In this document: one piece after another, positions 1 through 32,000 of the stretch
Numbering within the stretch: position 1 is the stretch's first letter
Layout: each line of letters begins with the position of its first letter
Virus record (IMG/VR): IMGVR_UViG_2879770953_000004
Strand: one strand, 5' to 3'
DNA: 38,987 nucleotides
DNA from: a virus
Lineage: Duplodnaviria; Heunggongvirae; Uroviricota; Caudoviricetes
The notes under the pieces: model-generated
What the model saw: only the letters and a program-made list of their open reading frames with translations
The model's database searches: none
What the model was told of the DNA's origin: nothing
Made by a program: the position numbers and the translations under genes

Positions 1-834
1 ATGAGTGATGGGTGGTTAGATTCTACTATGCAAGCAATAAACGATAGGATTAAAAGCCCATTATGGGGATATATCATTCTTGCATGGGTATGGTTCAACT
101 GGCCTAACTTAGCAATGCTCTTTATGAGTGATGCGCCTGTTAAGTTTCGAATAGATTATATACTATCTCAGGAATATTTTTACGCTCATTATCTGCTTGC
201 TCCTGTCTTTTTTGGAGGTGTGCTAGCTGTTATTACTCCTTATGCTCAATGGTTACTTTCTCTTGCTCAAAAATGGGCTACAGATAAACACAATGAAAAT
301 GTTTATCTTACAAAGGAAAAAGAATACTTGGATTCAATCAGGTTAACGGGGTTAAAGGTTCGGGCTGCCAGAGAAGAAGAGAAAGAAAATGCTAAAATTG
401 ATGCTGATATTAAAGCGGAAGTAGAGCGTGGTAAGCGTGAAGAGCTGGTCACAGAAGAGCTACAGACAGAGAAGAAACTGATTCAGAAAGAAATTAATAA
501 TTTAAAGCAGTTAGTATCTAAAGAAAAACAAACCATTGAAAATATCGAGATAGAAAAAGAGAGACTACAGGATTTGATTGTTGCCTCACTTGAGGTAATG
601 GATGATTTCTTTAAAGTTGATAATAGCCGTTCATTACAGCAATTGAAGAGTAGGGTAGAAGAACTTTTAACAGTTTCTGATATTGAAGCTTCTACCATAC
701 GTAACGCGCTACGACAAAAGAAAGAGCTAACTTCATCACAGACAATGAAAATGTTCGATATGGTAGAGGCTAAAATTAAAAAGGAAAAAGAAAAAGGTAA
801 TGATATAGAGTCGGATGAATTAATTAACCAATAA
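1..834 (+). CDS. Hypothetical membrane-anchored coiled-coil protein; may extend upstream of the window
   Basis: 277-aa ORF starting at base 1. The N-terminal third has hydrophobic helices (LWGYIILAWVWFNWPNLAMLF, LLAPVFFGGVLAVITPYAQWLL). The rest is K/E-rich heptad-like sequence. Confidence 0.5.
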   Translation: MSDGWLDSTMQAINDRIKSPLWGYIILAWVWFNWPNLAMLFMSDAPVKFRIDYILSQEYFYAHYLLAPVFFGGVLAVITPYAQWLLSLAQKWATDKHNENVYLTKEKEYLDSIRLTGLKVRAAREEEKENAKIDADIKAEVERGKREELVTEELQTEKKLIQKEINNLKQLVSKEKQTIENIEIEKERLQDLIVASLEVMDDFFKVDNSRSLQQLKSRVEELLTVSDIEASTIRNALRQKKELTSSQTMKMFDMVEAKIKKEKEKGNDIESDELINQ

Positions 835-2656
835 TGCTATGCCTGTAAATAACAGGACATAAACAGGTTAGTACCTATGCAATTTAACGGTATTTTTCCA
901 AGTATCTATGCAATCCTACACAGATTCTATACAGTATCGACATAGCCCCTTTTTATCATAACTTATTGAAATGTATAGAGAATCTGTAAATCCTCTTTTC
1001 AGGGTAAACTATATCGTGTTAGTCGTCCCTCTCCAGACACTACATATAGTGCTATATACAGGGCTATATAACGGTGTCTATGCAGTTGGTCACTATCAAT
1101 ATTCCCTCAAAGTGACTATCAACCTACTTAATAGTTACCTACGTGAAAGTTATGAAGTGATGGTTATAGTTCCTTCGTATCTCCTCTTAAAAAATCACTT
1201 AGAGACATCTTAATCTCTATACAGAATCTACGTAGGTGCTTATTAGTGCGCAAAACAGCTATTATGTTAAAAACATACTGTATACATATCAGTACTGATT
1301 TATAAGGGTTTTGTGTATTGGCTGATAAGAGGCTATACAGCACCTTGAGAGCATGTCTTATAAGTCATTGACACATAAGGTCACAGAAGTTTGTAGCTGT
1401 TACAGAGAAAACTGGATAGGACTTCACAGAACTACAAAATGTTACAGCTATTGATAGGTTAAATCTTCTTGATAGATGCTTTGAAGTGTGATGAAGGTTT
1501 CTTGAGGTGGGGCTAAACAGATATCATGAAGAAAGTCAATAGTTGGTTATAGATATTTTAACTGCTTTTGCAAAGGGAGTGCTATATCGTGAATCTGGGG
1601 TACTTAACAGCCATCAATTGAGTGTAGATATTTTTGAAGATTATCGGTGAAGGGGAATGTAGAGGGGTTACTACGATATTTATAAAAATTTTCAGACTCT
1701 GAAAAGTTACTGTACAGATTTTATACAAACAAAAAAGGACTCCGGTGAAGGAGCCCTCATCAGGTAGATTTTTAATGTGGCTACTACCATCCACCCATAC
1801 CGCACCAAACCTTACCCCACCGAACCGCACCCTACACGACCTTACCTCACCGGACACTGCCATAGAGAGTGTGCTTGGTTGCTTTGGAAGTAAACCTAGT
1901 ACAGTAAGCCATTATACATATCTAGATAGTAACGTCAAGAAACTTTTAACAGGAGGGGTTCCTATGGTCACATATTCCCTCTCTTCCCACTAAGTAAGCC
2001 TTAGCAGCACCTAAGCAACAATTGACTAACAGATTCGGTAGAGTCTATCTCATAGGTCAACTTCATAAACTCAGAGTTAAGTTACCTTGAAAGATTCTAC
2101 CAAGAACTACACAGGTGTTATTTAGTCTAACTGTGAAGGGATATTTAACGGGAGAAGAGATACGATATAACCCGAAGGGAGAGTATCATCTTAACAATTA
2201 TCTTAAGAATAAAAACTGAAAAACTCTTAACAGATAACTACCTAGAAAGAAGGGAACGATAAGACCAGAGGTAGTGACCTGTTAAACAGGCTGTTTCGAA
2301 GTCTCTTAAGAGTCTGTTAAGTAAGGTCATGTGAACAATCTTACCATTTTGTCAATGCCTTTGTCTTTGACCTAAATCAATAAAATGTATCGTTTGATAT
2401 GGTTTTAAGCAAAATAGCTAAAAAATCTTTTTAGAGGGGCGCTTCGCTTGTGTCACCAATATTATTCTTCCCTGTCTAAGGGGGAGGTTACAGAGGTCTT
2501 TCAAACCTCAATAGGCAAACCGAGGAACACGAAGGACGAGGGAAGAAAATCTATTGTGATTACCTTGAACAACGCCTGTAAAGACTGTCAAGAAGGTTGG
2601 TTAAGAATGGCTCTCCCTTTCTGGGGTTATCGCCTTGTATCTTAGTGATGAAGTGG

Positions 2657-3825
<1,169 letters not shown>

Positions 3826-4099
3826 TGGAGCACCTGTGTTGTTCTGAGGTGAGCATATCACCTCTGTTCAGGTGGCCAAATTCAGTGTGCCACTTCATGA
3901 GTCCAGGAAGTTCTCTGTGAAGGGTCTTGTCAGTCCTTTATATTGGGTGATTACAACTCATTGATGAATAAGGGTTTTTCTACAAGCTATCAACTGGATA
4001 GCTTGATGTGACCAACTGAAAGATACAGCTTTCCGGCTTTGTCAAGAGATTTCACTACCCACCAGCTAAAAATATTTCAGAGGCGGGAGTGATTGGAGG

Positions 4100-4288
4100 T
4101 TAGGATGGGTCTTTGTGGTTGTCTTCACGGCCTCTGTCCTTCAGGTCAAACGACCATTCTCGACCGAACAACCGAAACACGATGAACACCCTGACAATGA
4201 CATAGCGAAGTAGTAAGCCTGCGAACAGACCCACACCCCCACCAGCCCATAAATCAGATGACCCCAATTCTTGAGGGAGGTTAAACAT
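4100..4288 (-). CDS. Small single-pass membrane protein (62 aa), function unknown
   Basis: GAAGG Shine-Dalgarno 8 nt upstream of the ATG. One hydrophobic helix (WAGGGVGLFAGLLLRYVIVRVFIVF) and a charged tail. Lies downstream of a strong extended -10 promoter. Confidence 0.35.
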   Translation of the reverse strand: MFNLPQELGSSDLWAGGGVGLFAGLLLRYVIVRVFIVFRLFGREWSFDLKDRGREDNHKDPS

Positions 4289-4371
4289 TCAATGTACCTT
4301 CTGTGTGCAATGCAAAAACATGTGACCAAATACATAGCCACGCTTCATATTTCCCCCTCTCTCATAAACCC

Positions 4372-4380
4372 ATTATACCA
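4372..4380 (-). promoter_or_regulatory. Extended -10 promoter (TGgTATAAT) firing leftward
   Basis: The minus strand reads TGGTATAAT; a perfect TATAAT lies at 4372-4377. Confidence 0.5.
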
Positions 4381-4384
4381 CAAA

Positions 4385-4402
4385 TGTTACGAAATTGTTA
4401 CG
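4385..4402 (+). repeat. Direct repeat TGTTACG x2 with 11-bp period (candidate operator) between divergent promoters
   Basis: TGTTACG at 4385-4391 and at 4396-4402. The second copy runs into the palindrome TTACGTAA. Confidence 0.45.
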
Positions 4403-4409
4403 TAAATGC

Positions 4410-4438
4410 TTGACATTAATCCTTGAAAATGCTAGTAT
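4410..4438 (+). promoter_or_regulatory. Sigma70-like promoter TTGACA-17 bp-TAGTAT firing rightward
   Basis: Perfect -35 at 4410-4415, 17-nt spacer, TAGTAT at 4433-4438. About 50 nt upstream of the ORF at 4491. Confidence 0.5.
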
Positions 4439-4490
4439 TGTATGTATTTAGTTAACAGAATAATAACATTCCATAAGGGTCAGAATATGA

Positions 4491-5042
4491 ATGAACGACA
4501 GAGAATTTCAAAGGTTTCTTGAAGAGAGTAAGGCAAGAAACAAGCACAACTCCTACGCTTACACAAACTCCCCCACCAGCTACGAACTGCCAGCCTTTTC
4601 CAAAACCGAACGTAAAAACATTGAAGCGCTCATTCGTAGCATTACGCCACGGGTAAGACACATGCCAACACGCAAAGAAAAAGAGAACACTTTAAAGACT
4701 TTCCTGATGAGTTTTGATAGCTACGAACAATTACCATCACGAATTGAAGATATTATTATCGGCACTTGTCGCAGCTTTGGAAGAGATAATTATCACCGAA
4801 AAGTTTTCTATTTACTACGAAATATTGACAAGATTAGCTCAAGCACAATAACAAGTTATCTACAGCGTCAAGCGACCCGATTAAGCCATGAGCTACCAAG
4901 TGATAAATATTGCGCTAACTTAGCCACCATTTGCATGAAAGTTATTGAGACAATTAATCATCATGTGGAAGTGGGCAATATTAGCCTTACAACCAGTGAA
5001 CCAGATTTTGAATTTGACCCCTATATTTTGGAGGAATTTTAA
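4491..5042 (+). CDS. Hypothetical protein (183 aa)
   Basis: First ORF of a tightly packed co-directional gene string. No family recognised. Confidence 0.55.
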   Translation: MNDREFQRFLEESKARNKHNSYAYTNSPTSYELPAFSKTERKNIEALIRSITPRVRHMPTRKEKENTLKTFLMSFDSYEQLPSRIEDIIIGTCRSFGRDNYHRKVFYLLRNIDKISSSTITSYLQRQATRLSHELPSDKYCANLATICMKVIETINHHVEVGNISLTTSEPDFEFDPYILEEF

Positions 5043-5043
5043 A

Positions 5044-5322
5044 ATGAATAAACACACTTTGACCCGTATTTCAGAAGAAGCTTTTCACGAGCTTACCCGA
5101 ATTAAACAGACAACTAACCTGCCTCATCAAACTATTATGCAGCTTGCAATTGCTAAAGAGGTCACTGAGTCGGATTTACTGAAATATCCAGTTTCTAAAG
5201 GTCGCAGACACATCAGAATTACTAAGAACGCTCTGGCTACTCTGAAGGAACTGAACAACTTTAAAATTGATATTGCCCGACTATTGAGCATCAAGATTCA
5301 CAAGCTATCGATGGGGGTTTAA
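5044..5322 (+). CDS. Hypothetical small protein, possibly DNA-binding (92 aa)
   Basis: The ATG lies 2 nt after the preceding stop. N-terminus MNKHTLTRISEEAFHELTRIKQTTNLPHQTIMQLAIAKEV has a strand-helix-helix (RHH-like) appearance. This is inference only. Confidence 0.45.
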   Translation: MNKHTLTRISEEAFHELTRIKQTTNLPHQTIMQLAIAKEVTESDLLKYPVSKGRRHIRITKNALATLKELNNFKIDIARLLSIKIHKLSMGV

Positions 5323-5537
5323 TGCTATGCATTACCTTTGAATACCACACAGATAAAATGATTCGCTACATCTCCGACCTCCTGATTAAAGGAAACGGAT
5401 TCGGTGACATCTTTAACTCAAGAGATATTTTCATTAAAGCCATTGGCCCAAATGAAACACTGAAAGCAGCAGTTAAACTGGAATGGTTTGAGCGTCACAA
5501 GATTGAATTAGGTTATTGGGGTGAGGAGGTTTTATGA
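5322..5537 (+). CDS. Hypothetical protein (71 aa)
   Basis: Start overlaps the upstream stop (TAATG). The stop overlaps the next start (ATGA). Confidence 0.45.
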   Translation: MLCITFEYHTDKMIRYISDLLIKGNGFGDIFNSRDIFIKAIGPNETLKAAVKLEWFERHKIELGYWGEEVL

Positions 5538-5821
5538 AACCTTGGCATGAAGATGTTAGGCGATATTTTACAGAACACCTTACCTATGATGAATCCAGTG
5601 ATTCCCTGTGCTGGTCTGATGGAGAGTCGGTCACGATAAATACCGACGACTACGGCAACAAAACATTTAATATAGGTCGATACACATTCTATGTGAAATA
5701 TGTTGTCTGGTTCCTTTATCATGGCTATCAATCCAATAAGCAAATTATCCATCGAAATGGTAACAGAGCCGATACCAGACCAAAAAATCTTATGCAAGTC
5801 CGAGACTTTAAGAGAAATTAG
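5534..5821 (+). CDS. HNH_3-like small nuclease/homing-endonuclease-like protein (95 aa)
   Basis: Motif VVWFLYHGYQSNKQIIHRNGNRADTRPKNL resembles the ...IDHxNGNxxDNRxxNL signature of phage HNH proteins. Confidence 0.5.
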   Translation: MKPWHEDVRRYFTEHLTYDESSDSLCWSDGESVTINTDDYGNKTFNIGRYTFYVKYVVWFLYHGYQSNKQIIHRNGNRADTRPKNLMQVRDFKRN

Positions 5822-5972
5822 AAAAACAGCTTCTCAGACGCTCTCAATCGCATTCTAACGCAAAAAACTACCTTATTTTAGGGTGGACCACTGTACAGGC
5901 TACCCCTGAAAAAGACTGTTTAGCTCGTTACAGAGCGATTGAGGAGGTCTGGTAAAAAGGAGATTTTAGGAA

Positions 5973-6296
5973 ATGAGAGAATATGAATTACAGATTTTCG
6001 TTGATAGCGACACTGCTATGATGGTGCAAAGCTTCATTGATGCAGGTGTGGAAATTGATTTTGATAAATTACTAAAGCTGATGGCTGATAATGCAGAAAA
6101 CATCTCTGACTTTATTCAGTCGGTGGAGTTTAACGAGCCTCGAATGATGTTACCAATTACAGACAGTAATATGAAAAGATTGGTTATTGAGCAAACGAAC
6201 AAATACAGTATTTCCCCAGAGCAATTTTTGAAAGGTGCTGTGACAATCCTGTACAGCGATAATATTTTGGTTACGGATTCCGTGAGGGTTCACTAA
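5973..6296 (+). CDS. Hypothetical acidic protein (107 aa)
   Basis: AAGGAG-type RBS (aaaaggag) upstream. No family recognised. Confidence 0.5.
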   Translation: MREYELQIFVDSDTAMMVQSFIDAGVEIDFDKLLKLMADNAENISDFIQSVEFNEPRMMLPITDSNMKRLVIEQTNKYSISPEQFLKGAVTILYSDNILVTDSVRVH

Positions 6297-6373
6297 TGGG
6301 CTTAATAATTACTTGGACGTTGCTTGGCTTATTTGTTGGTTGCTGGGTGGGTAACACAGTAAATAAGAATTGA
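6296..6373 (+). CDS. Possible 25-aa hydrophobic peptide, translationally coupled (TAATG)
   Basis: MGLIITWTLLGLFVGCWVGNTVNKN read directly from the sequence. Too short for the ORF track. Speculative. Confidence 0.25.
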   Translation: MGLIITWTLLGLFVGCWVGNTVNKN

Positions 6374-6396
6374 TGTTATCAATATGTTAAAAGCTG

Positions 6397-6425
6397 TTGA
6401 CAAATAACCTTAAGCATGAGATGAT
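6397..6425 (+). promoter_or_regulatory. Sigma70-like promoter TTGACA-17 bp-GATGAT
   Basis: Perfect -35 at 6397-6402 but a weak -10. It precedes a ~340-nt untranslated stretch before the ORF at 6769. Confidence 0.35.
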
Positions 6426-6768
6426 GGTAATAGGGGGAGCAACTCTTCCTGAATTAAACTATTAATCATTCTACATCAATGATAGTTATTCTGAGTTGGA
6501 AAGGTGCAATGCTTTTCGTCATGGCCTATTTAGCCCACACTAGATAGGCTATCTCAAAAAGTCTTTGTTCATTCGTTATTGAATCCTTTGGATGTTCTTT
6601 AATTTCTTCACCTTAGCCCTTTATAGCGTTTTAGTTATCTAGGGCTTTTTCAGCTTTTAAAAAGCGCACTTGGCAAACCGCCTTTTAAGTCTCTTCTAAG
6701 TTCGTAGGCTGTCAGGTGTGCTTTTTAAAAACTGAAACATAAATTATCTTAGAAGAGGAAAAATAATA

Positions 6769-7473
6769 ATGTCTATCCGTGATGAACATGAAATGATTAT
6801 CGAAAACAGACCAAGTGCACTTGATATTCACGAATTAAGTTTGCGTGAATCTTTTGATAGAGCTTGGCGGGAATCACACGAAGTAAATAAAGGTCCATAT
6901 ATTCCACCAGAACCACTTGAGATTCCAAGAGTTGAAATTGATTTTTCTATGAACGAACGGTGTGAACTTGATTTGAAGTTGAAGCTACAACGCCGATATT
7001 TCCAAGCTATTAAAGACTCTCAAGAAGCAATGAGAAGTGTTTACGAGAAAATTCAGTCCAAGCTTGAAGACGAAATTGACGAAATGGCTATTTTGATGGA
7101 GCTTCAAACCAATTCTTATGCTTATTTCTCTCGACTAGACCGTGACGGTTGGGGGTATGACCCTGTAGAGATTGGTAAAGTGATTGCAGATTTACCAGAA
7201 GGTCAAAGAGTTGTTCGTACAGAAAGAGCTGTCAGAGCACCACATCGACTGTCTCTAATTGTTGCTGATAAATCACAAGCTGAGCTTGAAGAAATTGCAA
7301 AAGAGAAACTGATGAAAGCAAGAGAAAATGAGATTAATTTGCTGAAATCAAGACTGGCTAAGCTGATTAGTGACCATCAAGCGCTGGCTAAGGAGTACCG
7401 TCAAGAGTTGGCACAGATTATCAGCTTCAATGATTTTCTGAGTGTTCCACGAGAATTTAGCAAGGCTGTTTGA
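6769..7473 (+). CDS. Hypothetical protein with coiled-coil C-terminus (234 aa)
   Basis: GAGGAA RBS upstream. No family recognised. Confidence 0.55.
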   Translation: MSIRDEHEMIIENRPSALDIHELSLRESFDRAWRESHEVNKGPYIPPEPLEIPRVEIDFSMNERCELDLKLKLQRRYFQAIKDSQEAMRSVYEKIQSKLEDEIDEMAILMELQTNSYAYFSRLDRDGWGYDPVEIGKVIADLPEGQRVVRTERAVRAPHRLSLIVADKSQAELEEIAKEKLMKARENEINLLKSRLAKLISDHQALAKEYRQELAQIISFNDFLSVPREFSKAV

Positions 7474-7496
7474 TTATGAATTAAAAGAGGTGATTA

Positions 7497-7709
7497 ATGT
7501 TTGAAGAACGTTTAGAGACTATTCGGTCTGTTTGCGAAAGACTCCAGCTACAACCAAATAGACAAAAGCTACGAATTAAGAATAACCGTCATTACATCAC
7601 CTCACACAAACCAAAAACACGCAAGATTCCAAAGTGGTGTATTGACCGTATTCCTTCTGATGCTCAAATTATAGGTGAAACGGAACTACATTATCTTGTC
7701 CGACATTAA
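7497..7709 (+). CDS. Hypothetical basic protein (70 aa)
   Basis: AGAGGTG RBS upstream. K/R-rich. Confidence 0.45.
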   Translation: MFEERLETIRSVCERLQLQPNRQKLRIKNNRHYITSHKPKTRKIPKWCIDRIPSDAQIIGETELHYLVRH

Positions 7710-7783
7710 AAAAGAATTGGTTGGGTAAATACGGTGAGAGATTATCGAGTGACATCGGTAGTTTCTCCCTTTTTTGTATGTGT

Positions 7784-7850
7784 GCTACGTAAAATCTGTA
7801 AAGTTAATACCCACACTGAAAAATAGAATTTACGTACAACACGCTTAAAG
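7784..7850 (+). promoter_or_regulatory. Leader cassette L1: 8-bp inverted repeat (TACGTAAA / TTTACGTA) bracketing a TAGAAT -10-like box, followed by CACGCTTAA
   Basis: Arms at 7786-7793 and 7829-7836; TAGAAT at 7824-7829. It is a paralogue of the cassette at 10020-10093. Confidence 0.4.
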
Positions 7851-7863
7851 AGGTGAAATATGA

Positions 7864-9930
7864 ATGAGCAGATTTACAGTTGATAGTTTTATCGTTGAGC
7901 TAGGCTTCAATGAAAACGTTATTAAGGGACTGCAAAGAGTTGAAAAGGCAGCTTTGCAGTCAGCACAAAGAATTGAACGTAATTTGAATAGAGCGTTTAA
8001 AGTTAACCCAAAGAGCATGGATAAGGATTTAACAGCCTCTTTGGGAAATATGGAAAAGAAGATTAACCAGACTTTTAATAAGCTGCAGGAAAGAGCCAAA
8101 TCTACGAAGGTCTTTAAGTTCAAAACTCAGGTTGAAGAAACTGTTAAAGCAGCAAGACAGCCACGAATCAGCGGAAGCAGAGCAATTACAGCAGCGCATA
8201 GCGTGAATATGAGCAAGCTTCGTGACTTTAATCCTATGCTTGAGAAGTATTTTAAGAGCCAATATTACAGCTTAAGCAGTAAATCCAAGACACTTGGAAA
8301 CGAAGCTTTTAATCGTGAGTTAGCAAAGTTAAATCAGTCTCTTCGTGAAACACTTTCTAAGTTTAATAAGACCACCAGCAAAAATAATCACAGTGAAAAT
8401 GCTTCGAATGGTCTGGATGTATTAGCTACAAGTGCAATCAAAGCAGGTACAGCCATTTATAGTTTTCAGACAGCCTTAGAAGCTTATAGGAAGATTATGG
8501 AGATTGGTCTGAAAAAAGAAGCATCACAACGAGCGGCACAATTCGTTTTAGGTGATGAAGGTGCTAAACGAGCTACAGAATTTGTTAAGAATCTTGCTGA
8601 TAGTAGTGGTGTAGACCAGATTGAAACATTAAGCAGTTTTGCTAAGTTTTCCGCTGGTGCTGGTGATATGAATGCAGACCAGAAAGAATCCTTATTTTCT
8701 AATGTGATTGGTACATCCAGATTAATGGGGCTAAGCACCGATGAAATTAACGGGATTTTAAAAGCTTTCGAGCAGATGGCATCTAAAGGAAAGATTCAGG
8801 CTGAAGAATTACGCGGTCAGTTAGGGGACAGAATGGCAGGTGCTTTCCAGTTATTTGCCAGAAGCCTTGGAATGACTACGGAAGAATTAGACAAGGCCAT
8901 GAAAGACGGTAAGGTTCTTTCTAAAGATGTTCTCCCTAAAGTATCCGCTGAAATGGGAAGGATGATTGATAAAGCTAGTGGATGGGAAAAGATTATTAAC
9001 TCTACTCAGACGCAGTTAGGCCGCTTAAGTAATTCATGGAACAATAATCTGGCCTTAATGTTCGATGGTTCACAGGAAGGTCTTGTAGATTTTACAAGGT
9101 CACTGACTAATTTACTTAATTCACTGGGTGGTCAATCTAAAAATCTTGGTGAACATTTTGGCGACTTGATGAAAAGCATGTCAAACGGTATTGATGATTT
9201 AACCACGATTAGCTACCGAGTGCAGGGATTCTTTGACAGAGTGACCCTTGCTTACAGAGAATTAAATGACACTCAAAAAGCTGTAGCTGATGGTATCGCA
9301 AATGGCCTGTTAAGTGCATTAAAGGGACTTGCTGGTATTGTCGCTGTAAGGTCTGGTATTGGTGCTGTAGGTGGTATCTGGAACTTAATTAGGGCTATTT
9401 CCACGCTTGGAAATGTCGCAAATACAGCAGCGGGAAGGATTAATTCACGTTCCGGTAGTGTTGAAGGTGGTAAAGGAAAATTATCTGTAGCTGATGCAAT
9501 TACCAGAGTAATGATTGTCGGTATGACGACGGATGTGATTAACTCCATTGTTAAACCACTCTATGAACGTCAGATGAGTAAGTCAGATAATCCGATTGAT
9601 AAAGTTGTAAGGTCAAAGGTGGAACCCACAGACCAGGCATTAACTGGTGACATGAACTCTTTAGCCGCTGTTTTATGGGCTATGGTTCATGGCAAATCAA
9701 AAGATGTTCCACAGTTTTCACCTGAAGCATTAAATAATCTGAAAGGTCGAGTGGAAACATTCACACAAGATTTAAAGGTTATCAAGCCGTCAGTAAATAT
9801 TCAGCCTCAGACAATCAATATCACAACTCAGACGGTACTTGATGGAAAGGTTATTGATGAAAGAACCACATCGCATATTAATCGTATGCAGGAAGATACC
9901 TTGATTAGCTCAGCTTACCCAGAGGAATAA
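7864..9930 (+). CDS. Phage tail tape measure protein (TP901-type core)
   Basis: 688 aa. Helical N-terminus, core ...LMGLSTDEINGILKAFEQMASKGKIQAEELRGQLGDRMAGAFQLFARSLGMTTEEL..., and a glycine-rich hydrophobic segment (GLAGIVAVRSGIGAVGGIWNLI). Confidence 0.75.
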   Translation: MSRFTVDSFIVELGFNENVIKGLQRVEKAALQSAQRIERNLNRAFKVNPKSMDKDLTASLGNMEKKINQTFNKLQERAKSTKVFKFKTQVEETVKAARQPRISGSRAITAAHSVNMSKLRDFNPMLEKYFKSQYYSLSSKSKTLGNEAFNRELAKLNQSLRETLSKFNKTTSKNNHSENASNGLDVLATSAIKAGTAIYSFQTALEAYRKIMEIGLKKEASQRAAQFVLGDEGAKRATEFVKNLADSSGVDQIETLSSFAKFSAGAGDMNADQKESLFSNVIGTSRLMGLSTDEINGILKAFEQMASKGKIQAEELRGQLGDRMAGAFQLFARSLGMTTEELDKAMKDGKVLSKDVLPKVSAEMGRMIDKASGWEKIINSTQTQLGRLSNSWNNNLALMFDGSQEGLVDFTRSLTNLLNSLGGQSKNLGEHFGDLMKSMSNGIDDLTTISYRVQGFFDRVTLAYRELNDTQKAVADGIANGLLSALKGLAGIVAVRSGIGAVGGIWNLIRAISTLGNVANTAAGRINSRSGSVEGGKGKLSVADAITRVMIVGMTTDVINSIVKPLYERQMSKSDNPIDKVVRSKVEPTDQALTGDMNSLAAVLWAMVHGKSKDVPQFSPEALNNLKGRVETFTQDLKVIKPSVNIQPQTINITTQTVLDGKVIDERTTSHINRMQEDTLISSAYPEE

Positions 9931-10019
9931 ACAATGTTAGAACTACTAATATTTATTGCCACACATGGCAATCTATTAATCTTTATCTAGTATGACGATT
10001 CAACTATGAATAGTCGAAT

Positions 10020-10093
10020 GCTACGTGATTTCTTCTGAACAGATACCAACATCAAAAATTAGATTTCACGTAGCTCACGCTTAACAGAATAGG
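10020..10093 (+). promoter_or_regulatory. Leader cassette L2: 9-bp inverted repeat (GCTACGTGA / TCACGTAGC) bracketing TGAACA-18 bp-TAGATT, followed by CACGCTTAACAGAATA
   Basis: Arms at 10020-10028 and 10066-10074. The central part aligns with L1 (ATACC.ACA...AAAAAT.AGA.TT.ACGTA..CACGCTTAA). Confidence 0.4.
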
Positions 10094-10103
10094 AATAACA
10101 ACA

Positions 10104-10877
10104 ATGTTTGACACAAAGCAAATTAGATACTCAGGTAAAGATGGTATCTATTTTCACCTTAGAGATAATGTAGAATCTTTTCTTGCCTTAACAGCTACTG
10201 AACAGATGGACTATGACTCACCGATGATGGTGACAACTCAGGCTATGCAATCGGGGCAAACTATCACTGATAATGTTCAGAGAGCACCTAAGACCATCTC
10301 TATTAGCGGTGTTGTAGTGGTTGATTCGACGGGTTCAGTTCTATTAACCAGACAGGGGCAACTTGTAGAAACCTTTATTTCTACGGTTGAACAATGGCGA
10401 GACCAGAAGCAAATCATCACTATTGTTTGTAGAGATGGAATAGCTATCACTGATAGTATCATTACTCAGTTTAAAGCGAGTAAAGAGCATACCATTGCTA
10501 ACGGTCTTCGTATTCAGATGACCTTCCAAGGTGTAGAGTTTCGTTCAATCGTAGGTCAAACTGATATCTCGGCTGCTACTGGAAAGACAGCTACTACAAA
10601 TGATGGTGGTGCTACCAGCAAAAAGAATACAGGGAACACTACGACAAGCTTAGGTAACGGTATGTTGATGTGTCAGGAGCTATATAATCGCTCTACGAGT
10701 GAACTTTCTAATGAGCAACTTCAAGCCCGTATCAATTGTGGTAGGAATGTCAGAGTTAAGAACGGAAAAAGCACCTTCTCAGATGCCGCTAATGAGCAAG
10801 CTTCAAAGGTGCTTAATAATGCTGGTACAGGTAGTACTTTGAAGAAGTTTTCGGTGAATCCGAATAAGCGCTACTGA
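10104..10877 (+). CDS. Hypothetical tail-associated protein (257 aa)
   Basis: Lies immediately after the tape measure gene. Has a weak pattern resemblance to post-tape-measure tail-tip/baseplate initiator proteins (..ISISGVVVV.....IVCRDG....[11 protein letters not shown]). The C-terminus is low-complexity. Confidence 0.4.
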
Positions 10878-11713
10878 CGATAGAATCTCAACTATATGAT
10901 AACCTCATCAACATCTATTAAACCCCTCTCAGTGACTTCAGAAAGCGACTGTATAGCCTCTGTAACGTTGTCTGAGGGGTTTTCTGTTATTGGTAGGTCA
11001 ATTACCTTACCGTTGTGAAAAGTCACTTTACATCGACGTTTAGCAGTATTTAAAACGACCTCTTTAACAGCACTTTTGATTATCAGTTGTGCTTCAATCC
11101 TTCCCGCCTTTGTAGTCAAGTCACAATCAGACAAACACCCCACATCAATAGATTTAAGGCGTTGTGTCTCCTTCTCGATATCCGCATCAACCTGTGATAG
11201 CTCATTCTTTAGTTGTTTTAGCTTGCTGGTAATAGCTGACAAATCTTCAATTTCAAGTGATAGCTGTACCAGCTTCTCAATATTGCTTGAGATGTGTTCA
11301 CGGTGTAACTTCAGTGTATCGATGGTATTCGTCGTATCGCTATCAAATCGGTCAAGACGAGATAGCAGGGTAAGCAATGTACCATCGGTTTGCTTACGTG
11401 ACAGCCCTTTAGCACTACAACGGTTTTCATTACGAAGGGGACAGCGATAAATCCCGTTTCTTGTATCGCTAAAGCCTGTGATAATCAGAGCATGACCACA
11501 TTCAGAGCAACGGATAACACCTTTGAAAAGATTCACAGCCATTGGCTTATCTGAAGCAGGTTTTCTACCGTAACGAGCATATGATAGTTGCTGGACTTTG
11601 TAGAATGTTGTTTCATCTATAATTGCAGGATAATAATCAGCTATCTCTTCACAGCCTTTAGGTGTGAAGTAACCAATTACAGAGCGATTTTTCAGAAGGT
11701 CTTGTACTGAGGT

Positions 11714-11718
11714 TTGAC
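11714..11718. repeat. IS2 target-site duplication TTGAC (left)
   Basis: Identical pentamer at 13050-13054. Confidence 0.9.
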
Positions 11719-11729
11719 TGGATTTGCCC

Positions 11730-12635
11730 CTATATTTCCAGACATCTGTTATCACTTAACCCATTACAAGCCCGCTGCCGCAGATATTCCCGTGGCGAGC
11801 GATAACCCAGCGCACTATGCGGATGCCATTCGTTATAATGCTCGAACGCCTCTGCAAGGTTCTTTGCTGCCGTTAACCCGTCTGGTTTGGGCATGATACT
11901 GATGTAGTCACGCTTTATCGTTTTCACGAAGCTCTCTGCTATTCCGTTACTCTCCGGACTCCGCACCGCCGTGTTCTTCGGTTCAAGTCCCAACATCCGG
12001 GCGAACTGGCGTGTTTCATTAGCCCGGTAGCATGAACCATTATCCGTCAGCCACTCCACTGGAGACGACGGAAGATCGTTGCCGAAGCGGCGTTCCACCG
12101 CTCCCAGCATGACGTCCTGTACTGTTTCACTGTTGAAGCCGCCGGTAGTCACCGCCCAGTGCAGTGCCTCACGATCACAGCAGTCCAGCGCGAACGTGAC
12201 ACGCAGTCTCTCTCCGTTATCACAGCAGAACTCGAACCCGTCAGAGCACCATCGCTGATTGCTTTCTTTCACGGCCACTCTGCCTGTATGTGCCCGTTTC
12301 GATGGCGGTACAGCAGGTTTTCGCTCAAGCAACAGCGCATTCTGGCGCATGATCCGGTAAACACGTTTGGCATTGATCGCAGGCATACCATCAAGTTCTG
12401 CCTGTCTGCGAAGCAGCGCCCATACCCGACGATAACCATACGTGGGCAGCTCTCCGATAACATGGTGTATACGGAGAAGCACATCCGTATCATCAGTGTG
12501 ACGACTGCGGCGGCCATCCATCCAGTCATCGGTTCGTCTGAGAATGACGTGCAACTGCGCACGCGACACCCGGAGACAACGGCTGACTAAGCTTACTCCC
12601 CATCCCCGGGCAATAAGGGCGCGTGCGCTATCCAC
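11730..12635 (-). CDS. insD: IS2 OrfB (InsD) transposase
   Basis: 301-aa DDE transposase matching IS2 InsD as remembered. Confidence 0.95.
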
Positions 12636-12958
12636 TTTTTTGCCCGTCCATATTCAACGGCTTCTTTGAGGAGTTCATTTTCCATCGTTTTCTTGCCGAG
12701 CAGGCGCTGGAGTTCTTTAATCTGCTTCATGGCGGCAGCAAGTTCAGAGGCAGGAACAACCTGTTCTCCGGCGGCCACAGCAGTAAGACTTCCTTCCTGG
12801 TATTGCTTACGCCAGAGAAATAACTGGCTGGCTGCTACACCATGTTGCCGGGCAACGAGGGAGACCGTCATCCCCGGTTCAAAGCTCTGCTGAACAATTG
12901 CGATCTTTTCCTGTGTGGTACGCCGTCTGCGTTTCTCCGGCCCTAAGACATCAATCAT
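12593..12958 (-). CDS. insC: IS2 OrfA (InsC)
   Basis: [56 protein letters not shown]... matches IS2 InsC as remembered. An A6G slippery run lies at 12635-12641. Confidence 0.95.
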
Positions 12959-13049
12959 CTGTTCTCCAATGACTAGTCTAAAAACTAGTATTAAGACTAT
13001 CACTTAAATAAGTGATACTGGTTGTCTGGAGATTCAGGGGGCCAGTCTA

Positions 13050-13054
13050 TTGAC
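13050..13054. repeat. IS2 target-site duplication TTGAC (right)
   Basis: Identical pentamer at 11714-11718. Confidence 0.9.
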
Positions 13055-13852
13055 CAAATGAACCCGCTTTATATTGGTTAAGCGTCTGGTGACCTTCATC
13101 ATTAAGAGTCCTGACAATCTCCCAGATAGACTTACCCTCTAACCGTAGCTGAAAGCACCTCTTCACAGTCTCCACTTTCTCAGGGATTACAGAGAAGCTT
13201 TTACGGTCATCATTAAGCTTAAGCCATGCAGGACAACGTTTAGAAATCTTGATACCTTCAGAGATGAGTTCTTTTTTACGGTTCCATGCAGCTTGTATAC
13301 GCTCAGACTTCCTCAAACTCTCCTCATGCGACCGCTGCATTATCAGAATGCTTTTAATCAGAGCTAACGGGTCTTTAAGAGATTCTCGTGTGTAATGTTC
13401 ACCATCGGACAAGGTGACCACATCTACACCAGAGCGAAGAATGTTTCTGAGTAGCTCACTTGCTTGGTCTACATCTTGACGTGACAGACGGTCAAGAGAT
13501 TCTATCAAGAGCGTATCACCAGCTTTAACAAGCCCTTTCTCGATAGCGGTTAAAAAGTCACCTAAGCCACCTTTCAAGTGCTTACCAGTGAACCCACTCA
13601 CCCCCAAATCACGGAAGGATAAATCTTGGTCAAGGTAGTACTCAGGATGAGCCTTAAGCCAGTCATTAACCATCTTAGACTGTCTGCGTAGTGAGTCGCC
13701 TTTGGCTTGTCGCTCAGAACTGAATCTGATGTAGCTGATTACACGTTTCATTCTTTACCACCATAAAAACTAATAGCAGTTGGGCTTGTTATGAGGATGC
13801 TTCATCCGAATCATCTACCAACCCCTAGATTGTATCGCTTTAGGTGGTGTAT

Positions 13853-14275
13853 TTAAACGTGTCTGATGAAAATCACCCGATTAACGCCGCGCTGATGTAA
13901 ACCGCGATTAAGCGTTTGTTCCTCTTCCCCTTTGGCGAAAAACTGTGGATGGCGGACTTCCACACCATAATTAAATTCGCCAGGGAGAGAATCGAGAAAA
14001 TGCCAAAGCGCAGGCAGCTCCCGTGGGCCGAATGTGGCAGGCAGTTGCAGCCAGTATTGCCCAATGCGCGGAGCCAACGGTGACATGCGGGTCAAAAATT
14101 CAGTCACTAAATCATCGCAATGTCGTAATGCTGCCTGATGCGAAATGGTCGCCGGAAACTTAAAACAGAAGCGGAAGTCATCTGTGGTCTGTTCACGCCA
14201 GCGCAGGACAACCTCGGGTTTCGGCAGGGCGTAAAGCGTGGTGTTGCCCTCCACGCAGTTAACATGACGGGTATT
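13853..14275 (-). pseudogene. yecE: Internal fragment of yecE (DUF72 family), truncated at both ends by mobile-element junctions
   Basis: Translation ...NCVEGNTTLYALPKPEVVLRWREQTTDDFRFCFKFPATISHQAALRHCDDL...LHQRGVNRVI matches the middle of E. coli YecE as remembered. Similarity is lost after RGVNRVI (~13870) and upstream of ..RH.NCVEG (~14275). Confidence 0.6.
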
Positions 14276-14311
14276 GAAGGCTAACCCACTGATTTTAATA
14301 AGTCTCTTGTG

Positions 14312-15583
14312 TCACTTTGGTGACCATGGGACATAATCTGCCAGCTTCTGATTCAGCATTGCGATCTGTTCTGCATTACTGTCAGTCATCCATGCTCCGT
14401 ATACATTGAACACCATCTGGGCACTTGCATGGCCCATCTAGCTGGCAATGAAGCTTGGGTTTGCTCCGGCAGATAATGACCAGCACGCATAAGTGTGTCG
14501 TGACTGGTATGCTTTCCGGTGCCTGATGCCCGCACGCTTAATGGCTGTTTCCCATGAGTCGCCAATGGAATCTACCTTGTAGATAAAACCTACCTGTTTG
14601 CTTTTTCTAACCACCTGGGGGTTAAATACGAAAGTACATTCATGATTCACTGAACGTCCATATTCACGTAGTTGAACCTTGATGTGGTGCTGCTTACCCA
14701 GTCTTGTCATTTCAGCCTGATTTTTCAGGACACTGATAGCGGGCTGGATAAGATGCACAACCCTGTTTGTACTTGCTTCAGTTTTAGGTAGAGTGAACTC
14801 ACCGAGTTTCGTATAATTGCGCCTGATAGTAATAGTTCCTGCTTTCATATCGATATCTTCCCAGGCCAGGGAGACCAGTTCACCGTGACGCATTCCTGTG
14901 TACACAGCCAATGACCACAGGTTTTTCGTCTGCTGATGTCGGCAAGCATCTATCAGGCGAATAAATTCGTCACGAGTTAACGGATCTGGCTCTGCCCTGG
15001 CTCTTTTAAGAGGCTTAATTCCCTGGAAGGGATTTGCTTCTAAGTAACCGTGATCTGCAGCAAACTGAAACATTCCAGCGATTGTCGTCATGTAATAATT
15101 TACAGTAACGACGCTCCGTCCTTTTGCTGCTGCTTTGTTTTTCGTTGAATTCTGATACCCGGTCAGCAAATCTTTCCTGATATACAGCAATTCCTCTTTG
15201 GTTACCGATGACACCAGTCTGCCGCCTCCAATTTTCGGAACCATCGTTCTTGCAACGGATTCATAGCGATTGAATGCATTTGCAGAGATTTCCATTCGTT
15301 TCAGATCCAGCCACTTTTCTTCAAGTTCCTTCACCGTAATTTCTTTTTTACTTACCCCAAAAGCCTGAAGGTTAGGGGAGTCAGGGAACTGTGCAGCATA
15401 ATCAAAGCTTCCTGTGCGGATGGCAAAACATACCGATGTCCGCAGTTCCCCGGCGATCTTCCTGTTCTTGGCAGTGTCAGGGACACCAAGATTTTCCCTG
15501 ACACGTTTACCTTTAAAATTAAACCAGATGCGTAATGTGCCGCCGTGGTTTTCGACGCCTGTTGGATATTTGACTTTATCCAT
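14312..15583 (-). pseudogene. int: Phage tyrosine integrase with an in-frame TAG removing the catalytic-Tyr segment
   Basis: The ORF ends ...SAGANPSFIAS at TAG 14438-14440. The same frame continues MGHASAQMVFNVYGAWMTDSNAEQIAMLNQKLADYVPWSPK to TGA at 14312-14314. The R (TGMRHGEL) and SRHTYA boxes lie upstream of the stop. Confidence 0.85.
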
Positions 15584-29015: not shown

Positions 29016-32000
29016 ATGGGTAAAGGCAGCAGTAAGGGGCATACCCCGCGCGAAGCGAAGGACAACCTGAAATCCACGCAGTTGCTGAGTGTGATTGATG
29101 CCATCAGCGAAGGGCCGGTTGACGGTCCGGTGGATGGATTAAAAAGCGTGCTGCTGAACGGTACGCCGGTCCTGGACAGCGAGGGGAAGACAAACTTTTC
29201 CGGTGTTACGGTGGTGTTCCGCGCCGGCGAGCAGGAGCAGACACCGCCGGAGGGGTTTGAATCTTCCGGCTCAGAGACTGTGCTGGGTACGGAAGTGAAA
29301 TACGACACGCCGATCACCCGGACCATCACGTCGGCAAACATTGATCGTCTGCGCCTGACCTTCGGTGTGCAGGCACTGGTGGAAACCACCTCAAAGGGGA
29401 CCGGAATCCGTCGGAAGTCCGCCTGCTGGTTCAGATACAGCGTAACGGTGGCTGGGTGACGGAAAAAGACATCACCATTAAGGGCAAAACCACTTCGCAG
29501 TATCTGGCCTCGGTGGTGGTGGGTAACCTGCCGCCGCGCCCGTTTAATATCCGGATGCGTAGGATGACACCGGACAGCACCACAGACCAGCTGCAGAACA
29601 AAACGCTCTGGTCGTCGTACACCGAAATCATCGATGTGAAACAGTGCTACCCGAACACGGCGCTGGTCGGCGTGCAGGTGGATTCAGAGCAGTTCGGTAA
29701 CCAGCAGGTGAGTCGCAATTATCATCTTCGCGGGCGCATTCTGCAGGTGCCGTCGAACTATAACCCGCAGACGCGGCAATACAGCGGTATCTGGGACGGA
29801 ACGCTTAAGCCAGCATACAGCAACAACATGGCCTGGTGTCTGTGGGACATGCTCACTCATCCGCGCTAAGGCATGGGGAAACGTCGTGGTGCGGCAGATG
29901 TGGACAAATGGCGCTGTATGTCATCGGCCAGTACTGCGACCAGTCAGTGCCGGACGGATTTGGCGGCACGGAGCCGCGCATCACCTGTAACGCTTACCTG
30001 ACCACACAGCGTAAGGCGTGGGATGTTCTCAGTGATTTCTGCTCGGCGATGCGCTGTATGCCGGTATGGAACGGGCAGACGCTGACGTTCGTGCAGGACC
30101 GACCGTCGGATAAAGTGTGGACCTATAACCGCAGTAATGTGGTGATGCCGGATGATGGCGCGCCGTTCCGCTACAGCTTCAGCGCCCTGAAGGACCGCCA
30201 TAATGTCGTTGAGGTGAACTGGATTGATCCGGACAACGGTCATGAGACGGCGACAGAGCTTGTGGAGGACACGCAGGCCATTGTCCGTTACGGTCGTAAC
30301 GTCACGAAGATGGATGCCTTTGGCTGTACCAGCCGGGGACAGGCGCACCGCGCCGGGCTGTGGCTGATTAAAACGGAACTGCTGGAAACGCAGACCGTGG
30401 ACTTCAGCGTCGGCGCAGAAGGGCTTCGCCATGTACCGGGTGATGTCATTGAAATCTGCGATGATGATTATGCCGGTATCAGCACCGGTGGTCGCGTACT
30501 GGCGGTGAACAGCCAGACCCGGACGCTGACGCTCGACCGTGAAATCACGCTGCCGTCCTCCGGTACCACGCTGATAAGCCTGGTTGACGGAAATGGCAAT
30601 CCGGTCAGCGTGGAGGTTCAGTCCGTCACCGACGGCGTGAAGGTGAAAGTGAGCTGGGTTCCTGACGGCGTTGCAGAATACAGCGTGTGGGGGCTGAAGC
30701 TGCCGACGCTGCGCCAGCGCCTGTTCCGCTGCGTGAGTATCCGTGAGAACGACGACGGCACGTATGCCATCACCGCCGTGCAGCATGTGCCGGAAAAAGA
30801 GGCCATCGTGGATAACGGGGCACACTTTGACGGTGACCGGCGCGGCACGGTGAATGGTGTCACGCCGCCAGCGGTGCAGCATCTGACCGCCGAAGTCACC
30901 GCAGACAGCGGGGAATATCAGGTGCTGGAGCGATGGGACACGCCGAAGGTGGTGAAGGGTGTGAGCTTCCTGCTTCGCCTGACCGTGGCAGCGGACGACG
31001 GCAGTGAGCGGCTGGTCAGCACAGCCAGGACGACGGAAACCACATACCGCTTCAGGCAGCTGGCGCTGGGGAATTACAGTCTGACAGTCCGGGCGGTAAA
31101 TGCCCGGGGGCAGCAGGGCGATCCGGCGTCGGTATCGTTCCGGATTGCGGCACCGGCAGCGCCTGTCACTATTGAACTGATACCGGGGTATTTTCAGATA
31201 ACGGTGGTCCCGAAACTGGCTGTATATGACCCGACGGTGCAGTTTGAGTTCTGGTTTTCGGAAAAGCGGATTGCGGATATCAGGCAGGTTGAAACCAGCG
31301 CCCGCTATCTTGGCACGGCGCTGTACTGGATAGCCGCCAGTATCAATATCAGGCCGGGCCATGATTATTATTTTTACGTTCGCAGTGTGAACACCGTTGG
31401 CAAATCGGCATTTGTGGAGGCCGTCGGTCGGGCGAGCGATTATGCGGAAGGTTATCTGAGTTTTTATAAAGGGTTGATCAATAAAACGCATCTCGGCAAG
31501 GAGTTGTGGACGCAGATTGATAACGGTCAGCTTGCGCCGGACCTGACTGAAATCAGGACGTCCATTACGAATGTCAGCAATGAAATCACGCAAACCGTCA
31601 ATAAAACACTGGAAAATCAGAGTGCTGCAATCCAGCAGATACAGAAAGTTCAGGTTGATACAAATAATAACCTGAACAGCATGTGGGCTGTGAAGCTGCA
31701 ACAGATGAAGGACGGACGCCTTTATATTGCGGGTATCGGTGCCGGTATTGAGAATACGCCAGCAGGAATGCAGAGTCAGGTGCTGCTGGCGGCAGACAGG
31801 ATTGCGATGATTAATCCTGCGAATGGCAACACAAAGCCGATGTTTGTTGGTCAGAGCGATCAGATATTCATGAACGACGTGTTCCTGAAACGCCTGACGG
31901 CTCCGACCATTACCAGCGGCGGTAATCCTCCGGCATTTTCCCTGACACCTGGCGGACGGCTGACGGCGAAAAATGCCGATATCAGCGGTAACGTGAACGC

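Follow-up and report, generated by a model that had tools for sequence, protein, structure and literature searches.

Helically phased TGTTA repeats at conserved divergent promoters: a candidate control hub of a satellite-like island linked to Felix O1-type phages

Positions 4100–4470 of IMG/VR virus record IMGVR_UViG_2879770953_000004 (Caudoviricetes), a stretch of 38,987 nucleotides referred to here in its entirety as the window, hold two divergent promoters and a set of phased short repeats. A preliminary description made from the sequence alone had likened this layout to a phage immunity switch without a repressor gene. What does such a region control, and which protein reads its repeats? 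On balance, we lean toward the view that 4100–4470 is the control hub of an integrative island of ~12 kb, satellite- or parasite-like toward Felix O1-type (Ounavirinae) virulent myophages, in which p92, a protein of 92 amino acids (aa) encoded by the island, acts as the operator-binding regulator. The features concerned are these:

4100–4288, minus strand: p62, gene for a 62-aa small membrane protein, the first gene of the leftward transcript
4372–4401, minus strand: PL, leftward promoter called by consensus scan, with the extended -10 TGGTATAAT, the reverse complement of 4372–4380
4396–4401, read as the reverse complement, minus strand: GTAACA, the -35 of PL, with an 18-nt spacer to the -10
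4385–4400, plus strand: O1, putative operator pair TGTTA-N6-TGTTA, both pentamers invariant in 19 of 20 relatives
4410–4438, plus strand: PR1, rightward promoter called by consensus scan, with TTGACA at 4410–4415, a 17-nt spacer and TGcTAGTAT at 4430–4438
4453–4468, minus strand: O2, putative operator pair, an inverted TGTTA-N6-TGTTA that reads TAACA-N6-TAACA on the plus strand
5044–5322, plus strand: p92, modelled as a 92-aa single-chain tandem ribbon-helix-helix (RHH) protein, candidate TGTTA-binding regulator
6374–6389, plus strand: O3, putative operator pair TGTTA-N6-TGTTA, found by pattern search 7–8 bp upstream of the PR2 -35
6397–6425, plus strand: PR2, second rightward promoter, near-consensus, with TTGACA, a 17-nt spacer and TGaGATGAT, ahead of a 234-aa gene

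Direct reading of the sequence and the consensus scan both recovered the divergent promoters of the preliminary description, the leftward -10 at 4372–4380 and the rightward elements at 4410–4438. These are predicted to be back-to-back sigma-70 promoters with start sites ~80 bp apart, and their -35 elements are separated by 8 bp. The two copies of TGTTACG reported to lie 11 bp apart are likewise present (4385–4391 and 4396–4402) and contain O1, which is placed over the -35 and spacer of PL (at -22/-33) and at -47/-58 relative to PR1. Because O1 covers these PL elements, any protein bound to it must interfere with PL, and by the same geometry that protein would have access to the two rightward operons as well. 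O2 falls in the initial transcribed region of PR1, at about +8 to +24, and O3 is at -45/-56 of PR2, a promoter ~2 kb downstream of the control region. O1 and O3 are thus each 7–9 bp from a consensus TTGACA, at PR1 and PR2 respectively.

An alignment of the region from 20 relatives, drawn from E. coli, E. albertii and Citrobacter, contained 17 unique versions. Identical bases occupy 85 of 149 alignment columns across these versions, against synonymous divergence (dS) of 0.65–1.2 in the adjacent p62; the genes flanking the control region are saturated at silent sites among the 20 relatives, while promoters and repeats are nearly invariant. Five blocks do not vary: the PL -10; two TGTTA words 11 bp apart; CTTGACATTA; TGCTA..ATTGTAT; and GTTAACAG followed 11 bp on by TAACA. 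The third and fourth of these belong to PR1, and CCATTATACC of PL is essentially invariant. The PL -35 is TTAACA in most relatives, and the PR2 -10 reads TGaCATAAT in most of them.

Judged from this alignment, the conserved repeat unit is TGTTA and not TGTTACG, as most relatives read TGTTAAT and TGTTAAA where the window has TGTTACG. We therefore rejected the 7-mer as a unit, together with the palindrome TTACGTAA in which the repeats had been said to end, neither being conserved. What is conserved is a direct repeat, so the palindromic operators of a CI/Cro switch are missing here, and the 11-bp phase of the pairs is invariant. Three TGTTA-N6-TGTTA pairs occur in the island once its insertion sequences (IS) are removed, where 0.06 would be expected (0 of 2000 shuffles reach three), and the same three pairs, with none besides, recur in nearly every relative locus (12–31 kb; E. 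coli, E. albertii and Citrobacter). The 11-mer TTAACAGAATA (4452–4462), which had been noted as shared with the leader of the gene at 10104, is present and forms half of the inverted pair O2; its copy at 10081 is confined to a single allele group of that spacer, and we rejected it as a shared operator.

Other candidate signals were also considered. A terminator-like hairpin at 4322–4341 was rejected, its T-run being lost in relatives, as was an unconserved 12-nt inverted repeat (4325–4336 and 4441–4452), which would read in one and the same sense in the two RNAs. By reading, the TTGT...ACAG spacing around PR1 is 12–13 nt, not the 8 of a LexA box. RNA structure was not significant in the PL leader (z +0.69) or in the PR1 leader, which is unstructured (z +1.25), and an Rfam scan of 1–14500 at E <= 1 returned two chance microRNA matches and nothing else.

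The leftward transcript does not supply a familiar regulator: in agreement with the preliminary description, no cI-like protein is encoded there, nor in any of more than 20 relatives. What it does encode is p62, whose GAAGG ribosome-binding site lies 8 nt before the ATG. The frame stays open in 16 of 16 relatives, any indels being in-frame, and the median dN/dS is 0.17; by these sequence measures p62 is a real gene. One hydrophobic segment (residues 19–37; Kyte-Doolittle mean 2.18) matches the single-pass membrane protein that had been proposed, and Pfam and PHROG searches gave no match. Depending on the relative, the p62 leader may contain an insertion of ~100 nt, a 45-nt hairpin insertion or both (L010, L011, L012 and L004; L003, L013 and others), and the short blocks flanking these insertions stay conserved.

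The rightward transcript offers a better candidate. PR1 leads into an operon of five genes in the conserved right arm (p183, p92, p71, an HNH protein and p107), and the p92 product, earlier called RHH-like, models with high confidence (pLDDT, the predicted local distance difference test score, of 92) as strand-helix-helix twice in one chain. The modelled fold is that of an RHH regulator, and its fold matches include omega and Arc. p92 is present in every island; its strand residues HTLTR and RxHxRI are invariant, with overall identity down to 53%. It has no sequence match in Pfam, PHROG or the PDB, and the family is tiny, with 12 matches among 1.84 billion representative proteins; the full-length matches that we followed up (P0335 and P0337) all sit in islands of this family. 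The distant homologue P0335 keeps the strand residues, and its island keeps the TGTTA pairs at PR1 and PR2. In P0337 the strands are changed to HTNTKIY and LHSVQIT, and its 12.5-kb locus lacks any TGTTA pair. O1 and O2 flank PR1, the promoter that transcribes p92, so that short phased subsites lie at the candidate regulator's own promoter. Given the modelled fold, p92 is plausibly the best candidate to bind the TGTTA pairs, and we infer that an autoregulator within the PR1 operon accounts for the absence of a leftward cI.

The element that these promoters serve spans window positions 1 to about 14274, which is ~12 kb after subtraction of IS911 and IS2. Its remaining landmarks are:

835–2648, continuing at 3901–4099 beyond IS911, no strand: left arm free of open reading frames (ORFs), unannotated in all relatives
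2649–3897, minus strand: IS911, a simple insertion with the target duplication TGA at 2646–2648 and 3898–3900
4491–5042, plus strand: p183, hypervariable 183-aa first gene of the PR1 operon
6769–10877, plus strand: PR2 operon of the conserved right arm, comprising the 234-aa gene, a 70-aa gene, the tape measure and the tube initiator or Dit-like gene
7864–9930, plus strand: tape measure protein gene (Pfam TMP_3)
10104–10877, plus strand: tube-initiator or Dit-like gene (Pfam Dit_like)
10892–13751, minus strand: large serine recombinase gene (Pfam Resolvase, Recombinase and Zn_ribbon_recom), split by IS2 at 11719–13049

A control-region match is found in 406 of 5426 complete E. coli genomes (about 7.5%), and the island also occurs in Shigella, Citrobacter, Salmonella and E. 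albertii. Its chromosomal insertion sites number at least three: one within yecE, one in the yciI–tonB interval and one adjacent to ymdF. An integrase, multiple insertion sites and small size, with the tape measure and tube initiator as the sole structural genes, are properties of a satellite. Pfam, PHROG and PADLOC detected no marker genes of P4 (psu, delta, sid, alpha), PICI (alpA, pri-rep, terS), cfPICI (capsid) or PLE among the core genes, and no core-gene match beyond HNH, TMP_3 and Dit_like; PADLOC on the left-arm and core proteins returned nothing. Four IMG/VR contigs found to carry the island in a p92 scan of viral contigs are 25–54 kb long, far above ~12 kb, and are therefore uninformative on packaging.

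Several lines tie the island to one presumed helper lineage. The tube initiator is 70–73% identical to the gene right after the tape measure in Ounavirinae (SUSP2, SUSP1, Felixounavirus and Shigella Sf13-type phages); against SUSP2 it reaches 73% and the tape measure 34%. We named its role after the Bas63 structure paper, in which the protein encoded directly after the tape measure is the tube initiator. The repeat word is shared as well. The SUSP2 genome has 15 TGTTA-N6-TGTTA pairs where 0.52 would be expected, 14 of them within 70739–72407, a convergent non-coding region of 1.67 kb with TGTTA at 21/kb (3.5/kb genome-wide), mostly at 11-bp spacing. In Felix O1 the homologous ORF23–ORF24 gap (12306–13927) holds 13 pairs, and nine metagenomic Ounavirinae contigs have 7–15 pairs in the same place.

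The left arm points the same way. It had been described as ORF-free, and relatives indeed have no annotated genes there, but it is not empty: it shares 242 9-mers with the SUSP2 non-coding region, compared with 95.5 +/- 22 for other blocks (maximum 162), and short blocks at window positions 1535–1585, 1679–1731 and 2244–2285 are colinear with Felix O1 12306–13927. One possibility is that the island took this DNA from its helper as a signal for replication or packaging. Finally, the P0337-type (Hafnia-type) island has a tube initiator closest (69%) to that of Hafnia Ounavirinae, whose homologous region contains no TGTTA pairs and instead carries TGTAAAG iterons at a 10-bp phase; the island itself has one TGTAAAG pair plus one copy in the PR1 leader. 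Phage iteron, island word and RHH strand residues thus change together. With this tie to a helper lineage through tube initiator, shared non-coding blocks, iteron word and Hafnia match, the island seems to parasitise Felix O1-type viruses.

Some observations concern the phage side of this link. In Ounavirinae, a convergent non-coding region of 1.6–2 kb is packed with lineage-specific iterons, either TGTTA at 11-bp or TGTAAAG at 10-bp phase, and in the array of Hafnia phage Zyzzx (48215–50277) hexamers resembling TTGACA or TTGATA come after the iteron pairs. A C-rich segment of the window at 1763–1849 (CCACCCATACCGCACCAAACC...) matches SUSP2 intergenic DNA at 27608–27666, 27740–27813 and 28986–29082 with 72–82% identity. 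The portions of the Felix O1 genome paper available to us call the temporal regulation of transcription unknown and make no mention of TGTTA repeats or an array function. The literature searched, of which coverage was incomplete, contained no description of the Ounavirinae TGTTA array and none of the island, for which a prior description is possible.

In the mechanism that we propose, PL would drive p62, PR1 the five-gene operon with p92 as its second gene, and PR2 the tape-measure and tube-initiator genes. The three pairs of TGTTA half-sites, each pair one helical turn apart, would be operators, with p92 binding one asymmetric TGTTA per pseudo-dimer and neighbours lying side by side. Bound p92 would occlude PL and set the output of PR1, its own operon, and of PR2: a self-regulating regulator encoded on the right, in the manner of Arc, CopG, omega and ParR. 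The TGTTA array of the helper could enter this circuit either as dozens of competing sites per phage genome or by way of a phage protein of the same specificity, and either input would flip the island promoters. As for the sign of regulation, which we infer from placement, O1 and O3, at their fixed distance upstream of the -35, would suit an activator, and O2 together with the near-consensus promoter elements would suit a repressor. A more specific version, to which we assign a low probability, is that the island senses its helper through phage DNA. p92 on its six half-sites would hold down PR1 and PR2, and ~35 TGTTA sites per infecting genome copy would titrate it off and turn the island on; binding might also jam the array's own function, be it replication or packaging. 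The result would be a repressor-decoy switch induced by the helper's iteron array.

Several points weigh against p92 as the regulator of a hub of this design. PL, PR1 and PR2 are predicted, having been called from consensus matches only, and the combination of a consensus -35 with an extended -10 at PR1 and PR2 leaves activation and repression indistinguishable by sequence. The O1–O2 distance varies from 78 to 83 bp among relatives, making rigid looping unlikely, and O2 is down to one half-site in the P0335 islands. The covariation of iteron, word and strands is a single independent switch, and the Hafnia-type island does not have TGTAAAG pairs upstream of its -35. Last, p92 found no homologue in a search of 50,697 phage records; the phage arrays must then be bound by another protein, and that protein is an equally possible ligand of O1–O3.

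From this last point follows a possible, though less probable, explanation: the TGTTA pairs are copies of the helper iteron, and on infection a phage-encoded array-binding protein occupies O1–O3, turning PL off and PR1 and PR2 on, with p92 employed elsewhere. In its favour, the same word at the same 11-bp phase occurs in SUSP2, Felix O1 and the nine metagenomic contigs; O1 and O3 keep a constant place upstream of the -35 at two promoters, as activator sites typically do; and PLE satellites are likewise turned on by cues of a lytic helper, according to the abstract of PMC13060381. Against this, we found no TGTTA pairs beside TTGACA promoters in SUSP2 or Felix O1, which gives no sign that the pairs act in phage transcription, and the postulated binder has no named candidate. 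The joint change of p92 strands and operator is also left unexplained, though a switch of helper would explain both. A host protein could instead bind the pairs, tying the island to host physiology. The PhoP box, TGTTTA-N5-TGTTTA, has an 11-bp period, and each half-site of our direct repeats matches it at 5 of 6 positions, suggesting a response regulator of the OmpR/PhoB family such as PhoP. We think this very unlikely: position 5 is A in every island half-site and in all 35 SUSP2 sites tallied, none of which reads TGTTTA; a PhoP box normally stands in for the -35, but the pairs seen here precede a consensus TTGACA; and the word changes with phage lineage.

The remaining alternatives start from the leftward side. 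A degenerate temperate-phage immunity region whose cI-like repressor fell to IS911 or a deletion, a possibility that the preliminary description had itself raised, would account for a divergent promoter pair with an IS element 200 bp past the leftward gene. This is scarcely credible, and for this island family it is refuted. IS911 inserted simply, leaving a clean 3-bp duplication, and the DNA flanking it abuts directly in relatives; a repressor gene is missing at this place from more than 20 relatives that lack the IS and occupy at least three integration sites across Escherichia and Citrobacter; and the left-arm genes that do occur are variable cargo (a small serine recombinase, a Dam methylase and an HNH-AP2 nuclease). 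The conserved 62-aa hydrophobic protein, its 5' untranslated region (UTR) of ~75 nt or longer and the divergent promoter could also suggest a module like a type I toxin-antitoxin system, with a hydrophobic toxin under a divergent RNA and the repeats incidental. We see little chance of this, as the two leaders share sense and not complementary sequence, no complementary divergent RNA could be discerned, structure is not significant in either leader, the UTR tolerates insertions of 45–100 nt, and O3 at PR2 is left unexplained.

With p92 retained as the favoured regulator, other parts of the island deserve description. Its operon neighbour p183 is hypervariable, forming 1072 clusters at 90% identity compared with 94 matches in the equivalent p92 search; the window's version is 100% identical to a Shigella flexneri entry, and a search of genome contigs returned E. 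albertii fragments only. We considered p183 as a hidden repressor and rejected it: it has no family match in Pfam, PHROG or PADLOC, and its AlphaFold2 model, all-helical and of low confidence (pLDDT 61), is too poor for a structure search. Some Cys and His positions, spread over the protein, do not vary. Its sequence hypervariability suggests an arms-race interface with phage. Downstream, a leader of ~335 nt (6432–6768) separates PR2 from the 234-aa gene. It folds very strongly (z-score -6.9 relative to shuffles; minimum free energy -102.6 kcal/mol), includes a long hairpin at about 6650–6735, and could be an attenuator or a processing site of the tail-gene operon.

Every relative has 1.5–2.8 kb of DNA without annotated genes (for example, L013 3697–5993 and L010 3217–5993), full of repeated modules that include 94-bp tandem units (L013 5697–5873) and the words CTGTTAAG, CTATGAAG and TTGATAG. 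The large serine recombinase is intact in relatives. An IS2-type element of the IS3 family also interrupts it in L001 (22386–23614) and L002 (22373–23601), at other chromosomal sites, which could reflect a hotspot or inheritance of a disabled island. In the Citrobacter island L018 (2813–4000), a left-end tyrosine integrase replaces the right-end large serine recombinase, indicating that the integration module is exchangeable. L147, a Hafnia-type contig of 12,866 bp (the size of the island), has the recombinase in the middle and the tail genes inverted and could be a circular or rearranged form. Window positions 14438–38987 are a separate lambdoid-type prophage in the yecE remnant beside the island, with a tyrosine integrase at 14438–15583.

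If our interpretation is correct, ~7.5% of complete E. coli genomes hold a satellite-like island that targets Felix O1-type phages and had not been characterised before; such phages are widely used in Salmonella typing, biocontrol and therapy. Resistance or transduction phenotypes of island-carrying strains would then be explained as well. The circuit is compact (three operators, one 92-aa protein and three promoters) and could reveal how silence and later activation are controlled in a satellite of virulent phages. It also draws attention to the 1.6-kb iteron array of Ounavirinae genomes.

How does this arrangement compare with known systems? RHH autoregulators (ParR/parC, omega of pSM19035, Arc and Mnt of P22, and CopG) are encoded downstream of the promoter that they control; in parC of plasmid R1, 11-bp iterons flank the par promoter on both sides, and omega controls several promoters with one protein. 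The island resembles these in having the candidate regulator gene downstream of its own promoter and short, one-turn-phased repeats flanking the core promoter, and, in the proposed mechanism, in the action of a single protein at several promoters. It differs in that p92, as modelled, is one chain with two RHH repeats and would read asymmetric sites as a monomer, in having only two half-sites per operator, in the absence of partition or copy-control partner genes, and in the lack of sequence similarity between p92 and ParR, omega, Arc, Mnt or CopG. A modelled single-chain tandem RHH is shared with TraY of the F plasmid, AvtR and VirC2, but identity to TraY is 4%, TraY sites are not TGTTA repeats, and the island has no relaxase or conjugation genes.

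The immunity-switch likeness of the preliminary description stands in part. As in lambda CI/Cro, conserved divergent promoters lie tens of bp apart with phased operator-like repeats between and over them; the likeness is loose, however, as there is no leftward repressor, the repeats are direct pentamers and not triplets of 17-bp palindromes, and the element is no temperate phage but apparently a satellite of virulent ones. P4 lacks a protein repressor and has Ogr/Delta sites, TGT-N12-ACA, upstream of the -35. The island would similarly be a satellite without a classical repressor that shares a promoter-proximal recognition word with its presumed helper, but no element like the P4 CI RNA was found in the Rfam scan of 1–14500, motif and proteins differ, and the helper would be virulent. 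A parallel at the level of the whole element is PLE of Vibrio cholerae, the ICP1 satellite, which is also small, mostly made of orphan genes and bounded by a large serine recombinase, with a repeat-bearing non-coding region and hypervariable gene content suggestive of an arms race. Nor does PLE have repressor-based immunity, its activation hanging on lytic-helper cues according to the abstract of PMC13060381. Unlike PLE, with which it shares no genes, the island carries a tape measure and a tube initiator of helper type but lacks a recognisable replication initiator; its presumed helpers are Ounavirinae, and its satellite nature is predicted from sequence. By analogy, then, the region would work most like RHH-operator autoregulation, set in an element that resembles PLE.

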